This document shows, piece by piece, positions 18,879 to 64,000 of a DNA stretch of 64,000 bases; position 1 is the first letter of the stretch, and each line of letters begins with the position of its first letter. Both the position numbers and the translations under genes were made by a program. The notes beneath the pieces were generated by a model that was given only the letters and a program-made list of their open reading frames with translations, searched no databases and had not been told where the DNA came from. Source of the stretch: Escherichia phage AV126; sequence record OR352956.1. One strand, given 5' to 3'.

Positions 18879-19244
18879 ATGGCTATTAATATTAATGTTT
18901 CCGCTTATGCTACCCTGGCTAACACGGCTAAAATTGAATTATCCAGCATTGAGGCGGTGCATATTAGCGCCCGTCGCTGGTTTCAACAGTCCTACGGTAA
19001 CACGTATTTTTCTTTAATGGTTGACGTTGAGATCGGCGGTAAACTGATCGAGGTGGTTAACGTTCCGTTTCAATATGGCTATGGTGATCATTTTGATACC
19101 GTCGCCCTGGAAGAATTTAGCAAGGTTATCAACCTTGAGGGCAAGGAATTTTCACGCGGCGCGTATCTTTCCCGTTTTTGCCGTGACAATGGGATCACTG
19201 TATACAGTCATGCAAGCGATGTTAAACGTAAAAAAGATCTATAA
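18879..19244 (+). CDS. hypothetical protein (about 121 aa)
   Basis: Downstream of PeSL-like cassette; ATG 18879 preferred over 18861. Confidence 0.5.
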   Translation: MAININVSAYATLANTAKIELSSIEAVHISARRWFQQSYGNTYFSLMVDVEIGGKLIEVVNVPFQYGYGDHFDTVALEEFSKVINLEGKEFSRGAYLSRFCRDNGITVYSHASDVKRKKDL

Positions 19245-19250
19245 AAAGCA

Positions 19251-19310
19251 TTGACAGCACGAATAAAAAGAGTAAACTGTATTACATAGAGAGCGGGAAC
19301 ACTTCCCGCC
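19251..19310 (+). promoter_or_regulatory. PeSL-like cassette 7
   Basis: TTGACA / TAAACT / GAGCGGGAACACTTCCCGCC; ORF at 19334. Confidence 0.65.
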
Positions 19311-19333
19311 TCACTGAAAAAGAGAGAAAAATC

Positions 19334-19573
19334 ATGGCTAAATCTAAAATGTACAACGGTCACAAAAACAAAACTCATTGGAATGTAAGCCTGTGGATTA
19401 ATAACGATGAGGGATTGTATCGGTTTGCATTGGGATTGATCAATGAGTGCGGTAATAAAGATCAGGCGGCTGATTTAATGTGCTACCGTTTGAAACAGGA
19501 TGGAATCACTACAACGCCAGACGGCTTTAAGTATAGTAAAACTGCAATCCGCGCCGCTATGGTTGGAATGTAA
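19334..19573 (+). CDS. hypothetical protein (79 aa)
   Basis: Downstream of PeSL-like cassette. Confidence 0.55.
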   Translation: MAKSKMYNGHKNKTHWNVSLWINNDEGLYRFALGLINECGNKDQAADLMCYRLKQDGITTTPDGFKYSKTAIRAAMVGM

Positions 19574-37511: not shown

Positions 37512-38183
37512 ATGAAAAAGTTTGTTGTTTACAGTCGTCTTTCTAAACAGAAAAAAGGTGAGGCACAATATGGTATGGAGAGCCAAGAGAATGATATCCG
37601 TTACTTCTTAGACTCTGTGCCTGATGCGGAAGTTATTGGTCAATTTTCTGAATACTATTCGGGTAAGGGTGATTGGAAGCAACGTAAGGAACTGGTTAAA
37701 GCGGTTGAAATGTGTAAAGCTACCGGAGCAACTTTATTGGTAGCTAAAGTTGACCGCTTGGGTCGTAACAACGCCTCCGTAGCAACTCTTCTAGAAATGA
37801 TCGATGTTAAGATAGCCATCATGCCAGACGCAGATAAAATGGTTATACAGCTTCTGTCTGTTCTGGCTGAACAAGAAGTTAGAGGTATTGCTGATCGTAT
37901 TAAAAAGGGTCTTGCTGTAGCAAAAAGCAAAGGTGTTTTATTAGGCAGTGCTAATCCTAAAACTGCCGCTGCACGTAGAAAAGGAAAAATGGAATACAAC
38001 TCTGTTAAAGCAGACGCTTTTGCAGAGACATTCCGTGAACGCTTGGAGATCCTTAGAGATTTAAATACACCTTACAAAACTATTGCTGAAAAATTCAATA
38101 GTAAGAAAATAGCAACAGCACGTGGTGGTAAATGGGATGCTAAAACTGTTTCTCGTTTGTGTGCCAGACTGAACATTAAATAG
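37512..38183 (+). CDS. serine recombinase (resolvase/invertase family, 223 aa)
   Basis: N-terminal VYSRLSKQ (YxRVS catalytic-Ser motif), VAKVDRLGRN (DRLGR motif), C-terminal HTH-like; own promoter at 37455-37482. Confidence 0.7.
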   Translation: MKKFVVYSRLSKQKKGEAQYGMESQENDIRYFLDSVPDAEVIGQFSEYYSGKGDWKQRKELVKAVEMCKATGATLLVAKVDRLGRNNASVATLLEMIDVKIAIMPDADKMVIQLLSVLAEQEVRGIADRIKKGLAVAKSKGVLLGSANPKTAAARRKGKMEYNSVKADAFAETFRERLEILRDLNTPYKTIAEKFNSKKIATARGGKWDAKTVSRLCARLNIK

Positions 38184-57758: not shown

Positions 57759-58019
57759 TTACTCCGCAATTTGAGCCATGAGATCACGCAGTTCGGTAAA
57801 ACCGCCTACGTATGTTACCTCCCCGTTCACTTCAGACAGAATTTGTGGAAATGTGCGTGGAGGAACTCCGGTAAGATCAACAACTGTTTTAGTCATTGAT
57901 TCTAAATCGTAGTCTTGGTCAAGACTTAAATATTCAAACTGTTTATTGCGCATGGTTAATAGTTGTTTTGACATTTCACAAAATTGACAGTTAGGTTTAC
58001 CAAAAATTACAAATTCCAT
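57759..58019 (-). CDS. glutaredoxin-like thioredoxin (NrdC/NrdH-like, 86 aa)
   Basis: N-terminal active site GKPNCQFC (CxxC) in glutaredoxin-fold-sized protein; GGAG SD. Confidence 0.7.
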   Translation of the reverse strand: MEFVIFGKPNCQFCEMSKQLLTMRNKQFEYLSLDQDYDLESMTKTVVDLTGVPPRTFPQILSEVNGEVTYVGGFTELRDLMAQIAE

Positions 58020-58861
58020 TACCTCTCCTTATTAAGTAATACTGCTAAAGACTGTTCAATACCTTTATTTAAATCTGATTTTGTAAGATAGTGACTGGTT
58101 ACTAGTTGTGACTTCACCGGACGTGCTGCTGGAGCATTATAGGTTGAAGCTGATACCGCCGATATCTTAACAGGTTCTGGCATCTGTGTCAAGATCTTTT
58201 CCGCAAACTCCGCCCAAGAAATAAGATGGCTTCCTGCAAAATGGTAAGTCTTAACAGATCTTGACCAACCTGTTTTTAATACTTCAAAAATAGCTTCTGC
58301 TAAATCTGGGGCATATGTTGGACAAGAGAACTGATCAGCAACAATAATAAAATCACGTTGTCCATCATTATAGCGAGACAACATGGTTTTTAGAAAGTTA
58401 TTTCCAAATTCGCTATATACCGAGGCTGTTCGAATAATATATGCATTTGGGTTAACTCCTCGCACCATTTTTTCACCAAGTTCTTTCGTATACCCATAAT
58501 TGTTTATTGGGTTAGGTGTAGTATCTTCAAAAATAGGATGAGAATAATTAAAAATATAGTCTGTAGAAATATGCACAAAATCAATTTTAAGTTTGCTGCA
58601 CACTGCCGCAATATTTGCAGGTCCATACGCATTAACAGCCAAAGCAGTAGCAAATTCATGTTCTGCTTTATCTACCGCCGTATAAGCGGCGCAATTAATA
58701 ACACCATCTACATAATCTTCAACAATAGCGTTTCGCACAGCTTCAAAATTTGTAATATCTACACGTTCTTTAGGATAAATTAAAGATACATTTGCAGGGG
58801 CAACTTTACGTAAAGCTTGTCCCAGTTGTCCATTACCACCCAATACCAAATATGTTAGCAT
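58019..58861 (-). CDS. rmlD: dTDP-4-dehydrorhamnose reductase (RmlD, 280 aa)
   Basis: N-terminal Rossmann LVLGGNGQLGQAL; size and operon position after rmlC. Confidence 0.75.
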   Translation of the reverse strand: MLTYLVLGGNGQLGQALRKVAPANVSLIYPKERVDITNFEAVRNAIVEDYVDGVINCAAYTAVDKAEHEFATALAVNAYGPANIAAVCSKLKIDFVHISTDYIFNYSHPIFEDTTPNPINNYGYTKELGEKMVRGVNPNAYIIRTASVYSEFGNNFLKTMLSRYNDGQRDFIIVADQFSCPTYAPDLAEAIFEVLKTGWSRSVKTYHFAGSHLISWAEFAEKILTQMPEPVKISAVSASTYNAPAARPVKSQLVTSHYLTKSDLNKGIEQSLAVLLNKER

Positions 58862-59421
58862 ACACCCTCGCTACGTAACTGTTGAAAAGATTTAGCCATT
58901 GCATCTTTTGTTGATAGGATAGGTTTAAAACCTTCATCAAAAATCATATCGAAGCCCCAATCGATCCCTATATCAGGATCATCCCAACGTAAACTTTGTT
59001 CACTAGAAGAGTCGTATGGAGTTGTGCATTTGTATTCAAAGATAGCATCCATACTCAAAACTATAAAACCATGTGCCAAACCAGGTGGAAGCCAAAACTG
59101 CGTATGGTGTCGTGCACGAAGAACAACACCGTCCCAAGCACCGTAAGTAGGACTATCTTTACGTAAGTCTACAGCGAAATCCAATACTTCACCACTTACA
59201 CAACGAACAAGCTTACCTTGCGGATTATTTGTTTGAAAGTGCATTCCTCGCAAAACACCGAAGTTTGATTTAGACATGTTATCTTGAACGAAAGTTTGTC
59301 TACCAATAATATCTTCGTATTTTTGTTCATTATATGTTTCTAAAAAGAAACCACGGTCATCTTTATAAACGTCTGGTTTGATAATTACCGCACCTTCAAT
59401 TTTTGTCTTTTCTACTTTCAT
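58855..59421 (-). CDS. rmlC: dTDP-4-dehydrorhamnose 3,5-epimerase (RmlC, about 188 aa)
   Basis: ATG 59421 after GGAGAGAAA; cupin-type RmlC sequence (GVLRGMHFQ...); ORF-track 5' extension overlaps rmlA. Confidence 0.75.
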
Positions 59422-60296
59422 TTTCTCTCCGCTAATTTGAGTAGGTATTGCCCGTACTCTGTTTTCTTCAGTGAGTTTCCATGATATACCAAAGTCTCTA
59501 AAGAAATCCACCCTTTTTTGAAAGCAATTTCTTCCAGGCACGCAATCTTCAACCCTTGACGGTTCTCAATAGTCTGCACGAATTGACCAGCTTCCATCAG
59601 ACTGGCGTGTGTTCCTGTGTCAAGCCAAGTAAATCCTCGTCCGAGAACTTCCACTTGTAACTTCCTGTCTTCGAGGTAGCTGCGATTGATATCTGTGATC
59701 TCCAGTTCTCCCCGCGCGGAAGGGGTTACTTCTAATGCACGTTCAACAACAGAGTTATCATAGAAATACAAACCTGTGACAGCATAATCTGATTTAGGAT
59801 TTTCAGGTTTCTCTTCAATAGAAATAGCTTGACGATTACTCCCAAATTCAACCACACCGAATCGTTCAGGATCTTTCACCAAATACCCGAAGATACAAGC
59901 TCCGCCACAAACATCTACCATCTCACTGGCGTTAATCAGTAGTTTACCAAAGCTTTGTCCGAAGAATAGGTTGTCACCTAAAATAAGAGCAACAGAGTCT
60001 TCTCCGATAAAATCTTTACCGATGATGAAAGCGTCCGCAAGACCTCGTGGCTCGGATTGGATTGCGTAAGTGAGTTTTATCCCAAACATAGACCCATCTC
60101 CGAGAAGATACTCAAAGTCTTCCTGATCGCCTGGTGTGGTGATGATTAAGATATCCTTAATGTCAGCCAACATCAATACCGATAAAGGGTAGTAGATCAT
60201 GGGTTTGTCATACACAGGGAGCAATTGCTTGCTCACACTGCGTGTTACCGGATGAAGGCGGGTTCCACTTCCTCCCGCCAAAATAATACCTTTCAT
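59418..60296 (-). CDS. rmlA: glucose-1-phosphate thymidylyltransferase (RmlA, about 292 aa)
   Basis: ATG 60296 after GGAG; [18 protein letters not shown]...VEFGSN...VTGLYFYD typical of RmlA. Confidence 0.85.
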
Positions 60297-60304
60297 AGCC
60301 CTCC

Positions 60305-61297
60305 TTAAATCTTCCCACTCCACCATTGAGGGTTGTTTAAGTACCATTCAATCGTTGAGTAGAGATCTTGTTCAAATGTAGAGTTTGCACTCCAACCCAG
60401 TTCAGACTCTATTTTAGAAGGATTGATTTCATAACGCAAGTCATGTCCTTTACGATCTTCAACAAAAGTTATCAAGTTGGAAGAAGGGTAGGTTCCTGCT
60501 TCTGGATGTACAGCATCCATGTAGTCACAAACCATATAGATGATCTCCATATTGGTTTTGGGATTACGTGTTCCAACATTATACGTTTGACCTGGTTCTC
60601 CACCTGTTGCCACTTGAAGAATAGCTCGCGCATGATCCTCAACAAAAAGCCAGTCTCGCACCTGATCGCCTTTACCATACACCGGAATCTCTTTATTCGT
60701 CAAGATACTTGTGATGATTTTTGGGATCAGCTTTTCTGGATGTTGATAAGGTCCAAAGTTATTGGAGCAGTTGGTTATCACAACAGGTAAACCGTAGGTA
60801 CGGTACCAAGCTTTCACAAGATGGTCAGATGCTGCCTTAGACGCACTGTACGGGCTTGAAGGGGCATAAGCTGTCTCTTCGGTAAAGGGAACGCCAGAGT
60901 CTGCCATATCGCCGTACACTTCGTCTGTGGAGACGTGTACGAACATCTTCAGTTTATTTTTTGGGAGGAGCCTTGCAGCTTCCAATAAATTGTATGTGCC
61001 AATAATATTGGAGTCGATGAAAACTCGTGGATTCTTGATAGAATTATCCACATGACTCTCTGCCGCTAAGTGAATGATGAAATCGGGATTGCACTCTACT
61101 ACTAAACTTTTGACCTGGGTTTCGTTTGCCAAATCTGTTATGCTTAGTTTAACGTGAGTGATATCGCCTACATTCTCAATATCTGCTGCATAGCCCATCT
61201 TATCAACGACAAAAACTTCGTTATTGGGATCTTGACAAAGAGAGCGCACCACGGCACTCCCAATAAAACCAAGACCACCTGTTACCAGATAGCGCAT
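60305..61297 (-). CDS. rmlB: dTDP-glucose 4,6-dehydratase (RmlB, 330 aa)
   Basis: [16 protein letters not shown], ...HLAAESHVD..., YSASKAA (YxxxK) SDR motifs. Confidence 0.85.
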
Positions 61298-61928: not shown

Positions 61929-62138
61929 CTATTCCTCCTTAATTATTTCAAATTTGGCAACACCATTTACAATAATATGACCACAAGACATAACTCCTAG
62001 CCAAGGATCGCCGTTTTTCTTCAGGCGTTTACCGAATACATCACAAAAACCATTCTTCATTTCAGAGGCTTCATAAGAAGCCCCTTTATCAAAAACGTCT
62101 TTGAATGTGTCGATTATACCAACACATTTCAAAATCAT
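61929..62138 (-). CDS. hypothetical protein (69 aa)
   Basis: ORF; start overlaps nrdB stop. Confidence 0.45.
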   Translation of the reverse strand: MILKCVGIIDTFKDVFDKGASYEASEMKNGFCDVFGKRLKKNGDPWLGVMSCGHIIVNGVAKFEIIKEE

Positions 62139-63223
62139 TCGAAGTCAAGCTCCTCATCATCAGAGAGATCTTTGTTAGCTGAATTCAATTTGTAATTAGT
62201 TAACTGAATCTCTTGGGCTGCTGACTGAATCAAATCAGGATTCAACCATTTTTCCATCCAAGCTAAAGGACTGTGTTTAGGTGCTTTAAACTTGGCTTTC
62301 ATTTTCAATCGACGATAAATAGGAGCAGCATTGAAATAAACCCACTGTTTAGACAATTCGGCGTTAAGACCTACAATAAAACGACCTTCACTAAACAGGT
62401 AGTCACACCACTGTTCCTCTTGTTCAACAACAGTGTCGAGGATCAAAGTCAACTCTTCAATATTGTCTTCGTAAATTTTACGCCAAATTGGGTCATGCAT
62501 CAATGCATCAATTACAGCATAATCCATCTTAACATGCAAGATTTCATCTAGCATAATTTTCTGGATCAGTTTACAAGCTCCAACAAACAGTTGTTGTTCT
62601 GCCATAGCAAAAGTAGCAGAGAAGGAAGATATAAACTGGATACCTTCTAACCCAATCAGGGCTACCATCCCTTTAAGAATCAGCAATCGAAGTTCATCGT
62701 TAGCTTCAATCAATCCTAGAGCATACTTATGACCAGCTTCTTCCAACTGACCCATGATATCAGCAATGATACCCATACGATTGAAAATTTTATCATTAAC
62801 CATAATCTGATTGATGACTTCAATTGGATCTGGAGTACATTGACGGATTATTTCAGAATACGTTAACGCATGGAGAACTTCCATTTCACTCTGCTTCATC
62901 ATCATAGCACAGGCTTCATTGTTACTCAAGAATGGAGAGAACAAAGTGATGATTGATTTTGCAAGAGAATCATTTTCCCATTGGAACGATAAGTTTTTAA
63001 TCATAACATCATAGTTGTTTTTAGAACAAGCTACGAAATCTTTACGTGTCTGATCTAGATTAACTTCGTTTTCATCCCAATCTTGTGCTTTTTGAAGTTT
63101 GTAGAGTTTGTGCATTTCTGGATAAGTTACGTTAACAGAATCAAAGATCCCTAATTGCTCCCCCAAAAATACTGGATATTTTCCTGTTTTGTAAACTTCA
63201 TTGTGTAAATTAATTGCTGCCAT
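62135..63223 (-). CDS. nrdB: ribonucleotide reductase small subunit (NrdB, 362 aa)
   Basis: Ferritin-like diiron protein; C-terminal ...WMEKWLNPDLIQSAAQEIQLTNY resembles T4 NrdB C-terminus; adjacent to nrdA. Confidence 0.85.
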   Translation of the reverse strand: MAAINLHNEVYKTGKYPVFLGEQLGIFDSVNVTYPEMHKLYKLQKAQDWDENEVNLDQTRKDFVACSKNNYDVMIKNLSFQWENDSLAKSIITLFSPFLSNNEACAMMMKQSEMEVLHALTYSEIIRQCTPDPIEVINQIMVNDKIFNRMGIIADIMGQLEEAGHKYALGLIEANDELRLLILKGMVALIGLEGIQFISSFSATFAMAEQQLFVGACKLIQKIMLDEILHVKMDYAVIDALMHDPIWRKIYEDNIEELTLILDTVVEQEEQWCDYLFSEGRFIVGLNAELSKQWVYFNAAPIYRRLKMKAKFKAPKHSPLAWMEKWLNPDLIQSAAQEIQLTNYKLNSANKDLSDDEELDFE

Positions 63224-63240
63224 TTAAAATTCTCCTCAAT

Positions 63241-63262
63241 AAAAGGGGGCCGAAGCCCCTTT
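63241..63262 (-). terminator. intercistronic GC hairpin with UUCG loop (minus strand)
   Basis: Minus sense AAAGGGGCUUCGGCCCCCUUUUAUU between homing-endonuclease-like ORF and nrdB SD. Confidence 0.45.
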
Positions 63263-63266
63263 ATAT

Positions 63267-63923
63267 TTAGCCTCGAAATACTGTTTTTGTTTCCGCCAGG
63301 TGCCAATAGAAATCAGCTTTGTTTACAAGAGTGTTGTACACCTCTGGATAAAAATGTTCTTCCTCTTTGTAACGATCTGCTGTTTCCCTGATTGACTTAG
63401 CTTTATCCTTTAGCCAAGCGAAGTGTGCCTCTTCCTCTGTAGAGAAGTAGCCTAAATGCTTTCCTTTACTCCCAGAAGCTTTGGCATAAATCTTACCATC
63501 TTTCCTAACATGTGCTCCTAGTAAGTATTTTCTTTCATACCTCTTAGCATAACTTAAGAGTGTATTTATATAAGGAGGAACAAACCTACAATATTCAGGA
63601 CAATAAACAGTATTTCCTTCAAGAACAAGATCTTTATCTAAAACAAAGCCTTCCACATTGTGTTCTTGATACTAGTTATCAAAGTTTGAAAAGGTGAACC
63701 AAGCATCACACACAGTAACATCTTTATAACCTGGTCTAATGTTTTCCATACGATATGCACGATTAAACATGCCTTTCCAAGCTGCATAGGAAGGGTCTAT
63801 GAATGTATTAACCCTTTTCCCATTGATAACACCACCTTCCCACAATCTACGTTCAACATCCACAATCAAGGGGATTTCTCCCCTCTCTGTGAGAACGGTA
63901 ACTTTACGTTTACCCTTCTTCAT
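63267..63923 (-). mobile_element. homing-endonuclease-like ORF (AP2-domain family) interrupted by an in-frame TAG at 63672-63674; possible pseudogene
   Basis: ORF-track ORFs 63672..63923 and 63267..63656 are in the same frame 5 codons apart; upstream part W.GMFNRAY...YKDVTVCDAWFTFSNF and downstream GKIYAKASGSKGKHLGYFSTEEEAHFAW (AP2-like); sits between nrdA and nrdB as T4 mobE does. Confidence 0.5.
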
Positions 63924-63934
63924 CTGTTCTCCTA

Positions 63935-64000
63935 CTACATTTTACAGGCACTACACCCTTCGTCTTCAGAATCTTCTTGTGCTAAAGAATCTGCTGATTT
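63935..64000 (-). CDS. nrdA: ribonucleotide reductase large subunit NrdA, C-terminal fragment (gene starts beyond window end)
   Basis: Minus-strand translation of the last ~65 nt ends ...EDSEDEGCSACKM-stop, the conserved Cys-pair tail of class Ia NrdA; coordinates uncertain by 1 nt. Confidence 0.7.
   Translation of the reverse strand, partial: KSADSLAQEDSEDEGCSACKM

Follow-up and report, generated by a model that had tools for sequence, protein, structure and literature searches.

The window, by which we mean the whole 64,000-nt stretch of DNA analysed, derives from a Phapecoctavirus-like coliphage of the Stephanstirmvirinae, and its best match is phage nieznany, with 98.6% identity over the 24 kb compared. 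The locus studied here occupies the minus strand, where a gene for a putative homing endonuclease is placed between nrdA and nrdB (Table 1), as the earlier note had read it. The nrdA 3' end, with the product tail ...GCSACKM*, flanks this gene on the side opposite nrdB, and the endonuclease ATG lies 11 nt past the nrdA stop. The gene has an AGGAG Shine-Dalgarno sequence, and the annotation of phage phi92 has the same ribosome-binding site for its orthologue. A promoter scan returned no minus-strand site between nrdA and the endonuclease gene, which makes co-transcription with nrdA likely; on the nrdA transcript, ribosomes probably load at the gene's own AGGAG. The terminator-like hairpin downstream also occurs in empty-site genomes and is therefore assigned to the nrdA-nrdB spacer. 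Further along the same strand, the window encodes a glutaredoxin/NrdH-like ORF (57759-58019) and a full dTDP-rhamnose pathway set of rmlD-, rmlC-, rmlA- and rmlB-like ORFs (58019-61297); the same genes are annotated in relatives.

Table 1. Features of the nrdA-nrdB region of the window, in the order of transcription except for predicted domains and the candidate restart codon, which lie within the endonuclease gene.
Feature	Coordinates	Strand	Remarks
nrdA 3' end, running off the window	63935..64000	-	encodes ...EDSEDEGCSACKM
nrdA stop TAG	63935-63937	-	second TAG immediately after, 63932-63934
Shine-Dalgarno sequence AGGAG	63929..63933	-	5 nt 5' of the endonuclease ATG
Endonuclease codons 1-83	63675..63923	-	ATG at 63923; ends at the premature stop
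Premature amber TAG, codon 84	63672..63674	-	changed base 63673
Endonuclease codons 85-218 and TAA stop (63267-63269)	63267..63671	-	untranslated barring suppression of the TAG or a restart; otherwise undamaged
Predicted nuclease domain, residues 44-123	63555..63794	-	helices, then beta-beta-alpha core
AP2/ERF-type DNA-binding domain (predicted), residues 133-186	63366..63527	-	three-stranded sheet and helix
GTG, codon 90, sole candidate restart codon	63654..63656	-	15 nt past the TAG
Intrinsic-terminator-like hairpin GGGGCTTCGGCCCC and T-rich tail	63236..63259	-	GC-rich; 3' of the endonuclease stop, ahead of the nrdB ribosome-binding site
nrdB (ribonucleotide reductase small subunit), downstream neighbour	62135..63223	-	history follows the phage phylogeny, unlike that of the endonuclease gene

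The earlier note had described two ORFs in the same frame, separated by an in-frame TAG, and this layout holds: an 83-codon ORF runs into the TAG, which is followed by the codons for YQEHN and by a GTG-started ORF (63656..63267), all in a single frame. Joining the two gives 218 codons, in agreement with the protein of ~218 aa that had been proposed. The profile of phrog_953 ('HNH endonuclease') matches residues 36-207 of the joined protein (E 4.6e-54), and this one match crosses the stop. The joined frame is also 99.5% identical to intact orthologues, and the two ORFs are therefore a single interrupted gene and not a chance juxtaposition. An extra A near position 63900, which had been suspected from a 1-nt inconsistency between the displayed letters and the ORF translation, is not present. 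Positions 63891-63908 read GAGAACGGTAACTTTACG, with GGTAAC at 63897-63902, the window is exactly 64,000 nt long, and 63672..63923 translates to ..KVTV.. as expected; the discrepancy was thus a slip of reading or counting and not a feature of the sequence.

Intact versions of the gene, which the earlier note had suggested looking for in related phages, were found in each of the 12 full-length orthologues that were read or are annotated (210-219 aa). Codon 84 was read in 11 of these (phi92, nieznany, VEcB, ESCO5, iGC_PHA_EC001, AV125, ETEC-TG, G1, ECML-183-2, DIJ07P2 and MirsaeidiM_Esher1), all of them intact and 218-219 aa long, and is TGG (Trp) in every one, against TAG in the window; the remaining orthologue, from EF1-1, is an intact 210-aa version taken from annotation. 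The orthologues phi92 gp074 (YP_009012405), nieznany gp034, VEcB gp069 and ESCO5 gp093 occupy the same site, go by the name 'HNH endonuclease', have 218-219 aa and share 84-99.5% protein identity with the window protein; all are intact, and W84* is confined to the window copy. The nearest copy, that of iGC_PHA_EC001, differs from the window by 1 nt in the 657-nt gene, and the two are 100% identical over 63267-63671. On the plus strand, position 63673 is T in the window and C in every relative read. Trp84 is invariant in an alignment of 120 family sequences. The TAG comes ahead of the predicted catalytic core (residues 94-123) as well as the AP2 domain, and the 83 codons in front of it encode an N-terminal beta-hairpin along with the opening helices of the predicted nuclease domain. 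The exact sequence of the 83-aa truncated product is not on record elsewhere, and no paralogue of the endonuclease gene was found inside the window. What lies at the locus is thus a known gene ('HNH endonuclease' in RefSeq relatives) of a known family, described in 2023, with a private nonsense mutation.

The family in question is IPA-HNH, published by Barth, Dunham & Seed in 2023 (PMC10448857), to which the endonuclease belongs. Its members combine a divergent HNH-like domain, unseen by the Pfam HNH_3 model, with a C-terminal AP2 domain; they are abundant in ICP1, Barbaviruses and Flaumdraviruses, often beside DNA polymerase and ribonucleotide reductase genes (PMC10448857). The window protein matches ICP1 genomes in tblastn, and in BLASTP it aligns with the 272-aa ICP1_2006_D ORF directly 3' of DNA polymerase over 164 residues (32% identity, E 1e-22), the common core being LDKDI..GN.VYCPEYCR.VP..IN. 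From its position, this ORF appears to be gp59. The IPA-HNH genes of ICP1 (gp59, gp209 and the split gp115/116) have the same domain order and are likewise free-standing beside ribonucleotide reductase or DNA polymerase genes. The ICP1 broken copy gp115/116 has a frameshift between the two domains, whereas the window gene has a nonsense codon inside the nuclease domain, and the phage lineage of the window gene, the Stephanstirmvirinae coliphages, is unlike ICP1. This lineage is absent from the supplementary tables of PMC10448857, searched with five names and accessions of phages; phi92, phAPEC8, ESCO5 and rV5 are not listed there. Nieznany has two further phrog_953 paralogues, gp206 and gp006 (18947-19525 and 1590-2261 in their locus sequences), one of them directly 3' of DNA polymerase I, as in ICP1; both lie outside the part covered by the window.

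A profile search puts the size of the family at 38,098 cluster representatives at E<=0.001, of which 5,752 are retained at E<=1e-30. Among phage genomes, 1,506 records have it, notably those of Vibrio, Pseudomonas and Rheinheimera phages. The sequence block singled out earlier as typical of homing-endonuclease-like proteins (YKDVTVC..W..F.NF) proves to be the signature of the family, with the consensus TYKDVTVCEEWHNFQNF in the 120-sequence alignment. Searches of Pfam and NCBIfam with the joined protein and with both halves gave nothing meaningful; matches of the window protein to DUF4170 and ATP-grasp were below threshold and were discarded. The AP2-type domain proposed in the earlier note was recovered at the level of the family. 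Pfam AP2 (PF00847) is matched by 65 of the 120 members, and the family profile aligns with the AP2 domain of AtERF1 (hhalign probability 90.6%, E 1.3e-6), although the AP2 match of the window protein by itself is under the Pfam threshold. Plant AP2/ERF structures are the top, if weak, PDB sequence matches, and an AlphaFold model (pLDDT 87) has a three-stranded sheet and a helix at the AP2 position. Many family members have an N-terminal DUF723 or DUF4379 (treble-clef) module replacing the short beta-hairpin of the window protein. The nuclease-like domain has no Pfam or NCBIfam model, despite the 38,098 representatives.

The predicted nuclease domain is unusual in its residues. The 25 Pfam families that the 120 members match most often include no HNH model, and no invariant or near-invariant histidine occurs among the columns of the 120 sequences; the position of the HNH general base, at the end of the first strand, reads L-D-K-D in the family. 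The related architecture of the HNH_3-AP2 homing endonucleases (Magnani et al. 2004; His-Me finger group 2, I-HmuI type) also joins a nuclease to AP2 in free-standing phage genes, but there the nuclease is a canonical, Pfam-detectable HNH_3 domain with histidine, found in none of the 120 members of the window family. Whole-protein fold searches were uninformative. The best structural match of the predicted nuclease fold is the restriction enzyme PacI (a 73-residue match). Weak matches of the trimmed domain profile to deoxycytidine kinase and ferritin among PDB sequences (E about 0.01-1) were judged spurious. The invariant residues of the core are D96-K97-D98, Y107, C112 and N120, with Tyr107 in the loop between two strands and Asn120 in the helix. 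PacI, an active enzyme, is the recognised exception to the histidine rule in His-Me finger nucleases; it binds its metal via one Asp and one Asn, and a Tyr of its omega loop serves as general base or nucleophile (PMC5714182, PMC4081073). The invariant Asp96/Asp98, Tyr107 and Asn120 would match this chemistry, from which we infer a PacI-like active site for the family. A specific version, in which the domain would be a histidine-less PacI-type His-Me finger with Asp96/Asp98 and Asn120 holding the metal and Tyr107 acting as general base or nucleophile, is offered tentatively, as a possibility somewhat short of an even chance. If true, this would be the first homing-endonuclease family with PacI-type chemistry. 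The PacI-like, histidine-less reading of the nuclease domain is the one mildly novel by-product and the one part that might interest specialists. PacI itself (PDB 3m7k/3ldy; His-Me finger group 20) has no sequence similarity to the window family and carries two Cys4 zinc sites; it lacks the AP2 domain of the window family.

We know of no biochemical demonstration of DNA cutting by any member of the family, and the missing catalytic histidine, together with the lack of an HNH model among the Pfam families that the 120 members match most often, would also suit a DNA-binding regulator, with a dead HNH fold and an AP2 domain as in CapR/AP2 repressors, whose presence or absence would reflect ordinary recombination. 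The annotators of phi92 named the orthologue a 'potential transcription factor', and AP2-containing phage proteins can be pure repressors (bioRxiv 10.64898/2026.02.23.707548). The intact alleles are under strong purifying selection (dN/dS 0.03-0.10), a value compatible with a domesticated gene as well. Nevertheless, the best structural match is to an enzyme that is active though histidine-less, and the family keeps Asp96/98, the loop Tyr107 and the helix Asn120 invariant. Several paralogues per genome beside essential replication genes are a classic signature of homing endonucleases, and so is the transfer between genera of the sharply bounded island described below. A regulator without nuclease activity is thus judged quite unlikely, and the family is presumed to have nuclease activity.

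Related records fall into those with a contiguous empty nrdA-nrdB junction (about 37) and those with the full gene (about 21), counts that include duplicate GenBank/RefSeq entries. The flanks of the empty-site genomes (SKA64 and about 36 other records) are 99-100% identical to those of carriers, save for the last ~28 nt of nrdA, which specify ...EDSDGGCEACKM in empty-site genomes versus ...EDSEDEGCSACKM in carriers. This variant of the nrdA end travels with the endonuclease gene. The nrdA end of carrier genomes has the tandem TAG TAG, and that of empty-site genomes has TGA and a second in-frame TGA. Between genera, the endonuclease gene is 96-97% identical, against 74-80% for nrdB; taken with the nrdA end, it makes a single island of 96-98% identity. 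Comparison of the window or nieznany with the Justusliebigvirus VEcB gives 94-100% identity over the gene plus the ~75-nt nrdA end, and 65-80% beyond; the island of high identity stretches from the endonuclease stop to a point ~75 nt inside nrdA. The synonymous divergence between the window and VEcB is correspondingly low for the endonuclease gene (dS 0.13) and high for nrdB (dS 2.3). Relative to ESCO5 the contrast is reversed, with a dS of 1.18 for the endonuclease gene and 0.06 for nrdB, indicating a second, divergent allele at the same site in near-identical phages. The gene of vB_Ec-G1 (2091-2747 of its locus sequence) is a chimera of the two alleles, the N-terminal part being 99.6% identical to the window allele while its C-terminal end, like the spacer, agrees with the ESCO5 allele, which points to recombination between the alleles within the gene.

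The gene is also found in stages of loss. In ZCKP1 a deletion has spared no more than ~34 nt at the start of the gene and ~150 nt at its end, and in DE16 only 21 nt are left, fused with the terminator at a TAAAG microhomology; DE16 retains the 'occupied-type' nrdA end. Judged by these comparative patterns, the gene behaves as an element that is, or was until recently, mobile.

Against this background, we consider it very probable that the window carries one free-standing IPA-HNH/AP2 homing-endonuclease gene, very recently inactivated by a single G-to-A change (W84*). A G-to-A transition at window base 63673 would have turned the Trp84 codon TGG into TAG, translation would halt ahead of the nuclease core and the AP2 domain, and the outcome would be a newly dead copy of the endonuclease, W84* being the first step in the cycle through which such genes usually invade, decay and are lost. 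Alternatively, the phage itself would have an intact gene with TGG that appears interrupted through a sequencing or assembly error, or through a minority variant in the consensus. The difference is a single-base substitution with no decay downstream, as the identity to iGC_PHA_EC001 over the rest of the gene attests, and would fit such an origin. The TAG allele was found nowhere else, but here the collections are uninformative: scans of IMG/VR and metagenome contigs for a 26-nt pattern around codon 84 found neither the TAG nor the TGG version, and they are hence silent on how common the TAG allele is. On the other hand, the same 2 kb has about a dozen other differences from iGC_PHA_EC001 (99.4% identity), so that real point differences are common at the locus. 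The change is not within a homopolymer, substitution errors are rare in finished phage consensus sequences, and decay of this endonuclease gene is documented in sister phages. An erroneous base is therefore held to be unlikely, the call at 63673 appears to mirror the real phage, and very recent inactivation is favoured because it fits both the decay in relatives and the dozen or so other point differences.

The earlier note had offered decay and readthrough side by side. The pseudogene reading stands, with a decay that is one base old, whereas readthrough finds no support. The two halves are intact and in frame, as they would be if the TAG were read through by a programmed mechanism, by a phage-encoded suppressor or in a supE laboratory host, so that full-length endonuclease was still made; a supE K-12 strain inserts Gln at amber codons, and growth on such a strain would put Gln at codon 84. 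However, the stop is conserved in no relative read, all 11 orthologues having TGG, and neither Gln nor Tyr would restore the invariant Trp. Neither the window nor the closest complete genome was found to encode a tRNA with a CUA anticodon: the 64-kb window encodes no tRNA at all, the phage's own tRNA cluster lying outside it, and none of the 10 tRNAs of nieznany has this anticodon. Other genes of the window, nrdA with its tandem TAG TAG among them, end at TAG as an ordinary stop, and the base after the TAG of codon 84 is U; UAG followed by U terminates strongly in E. coli. With the stop private, an invariant Trp replaced, TAG in normal use as a stop and the CUA tRNA lacking, readthrough is considered highly improbable.

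Even less credence is given to a gene in two pieces, in which the 83-aa N-terminal fragment and a GTG-restarted C-terminal fragment, or the latter alone, would keep the function. The GTG is close behind the stop, the fragment started there would keep the beta-beta-alpha core and the AP2 domain, and a comparable member of the family is split by a frameshift in ICP1 (gp115/gp116), although that pair is considered inactivated by its authors. The GTG has no Shine-Dalgarno sequence 5' of it (the upstream sequence is TAGTATCAAGAACACAAT), and the arrangement is seen in no relative read. The split also falls inside the predicted nuclease domain, half of which would be missing from the restart product, and helices 44-88 belong to the 73-residue PacI match. 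Inactivation by W84* is thus retained, and the stop is an ordinary stage in the life cycle of a homing element and not a recoding signal.

The comparative patterns suggest a model for the homing of the intact element. The gene is inserted between the nrdA stop and the spacer terminator 5' of nrdB, and the intact 218-aa protein would combine a histidine-less, PacI-like beta-beta-alpha-metal nuclease with an AP2 domain providing sequence specificity. In a mixed infection, the protein would cut genomes with an 'empty' nrdA 3' end, and repair from the carrier genome would bring in the gene and, with it, about 75 nt of nrdA end sequence. The coding changes in the ~28 nt of the copied end mark off the occupied from the empty allele and presumably protect it. 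That the empty allele is cut, and where, is deduced from the comparative patterns and put forward as a likely explanation for them.

The T4 phage offers a parallel to this locus, as the earlier note had pointed out. The T4 gene order is nrdA-mobE-nrdB.1-nrdB, and mobE thus fills the same niche as a free-standing gene between nrdA and nrdB. It is promoterless and co-transcribed with nrdA (Wilson & Edgell 2009, PMC2790892), and the expression logic is apparently the same as that of the window gene. The parallel in position holds but does not extend to homology: hhalign gave a probability of 0.1% for the family profile against MobE, and a relationship between the two was rejected for want of detectable similarity, leaving the likeness to T4 purely positional. 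MobE, at 141 aa, is of the canonical HNH_3 type and has no AP2 domain, whereas the window family has AP2 and no Pfam-visible HNH; and MobE nicks nrdB, whereas the flank transferred together with the window gene is on the nrdA side. The presence of unrelated proteins at one position suggests independent colonisation of this niche by different endonuclease families.

For annotation, the locus is best given as a single pseudogene (HNH/AP2 homing endonuclease, W84*), not as two hypothetical proteins or a recoding event. Across sister phages the element can be followed through intact, point-inactivated and internally deleted stages to a 21-nt stump and an empty site, a series to which the window adds one. 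The comparison delimits the mobile unit cleanly: it consists of the gene and the final ~75 nt of nrdA, and would be easily tested in crosses. The W84* allele, isogenic in the endonuclease gene with iGC_PHA_EC001, would be a natural null control for such homing crosses.

A second element that is present in some genomes and absent from others resides in the same spacer. A 112-aa ORF (phrog_17458, of unknown function) lies between the terminator hairpin and nrdB, whose start it overlaps by 14 nt, and genomes that have it may carry or lack the endonuclease gene. It was found in ESCO5 (1711-2049 of the locus sequence), G1, ZCKP1, phAPEC8, UP17 and dw-ec, and is absent from the window, where it would fall between 63223 and 63246. 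Three records attributed to phages of other hosts, MG065650.1 (Campylobacter phage B15), OP562383.1 (Acinetobacter phage ABPW7) and MH252123.1 (Klebsiella phage ZCKP1), have a locus 99-100% identical to that of E. coli Phapecoctaviruses; their host labels look doubtful, or else the host range is unusually broad.
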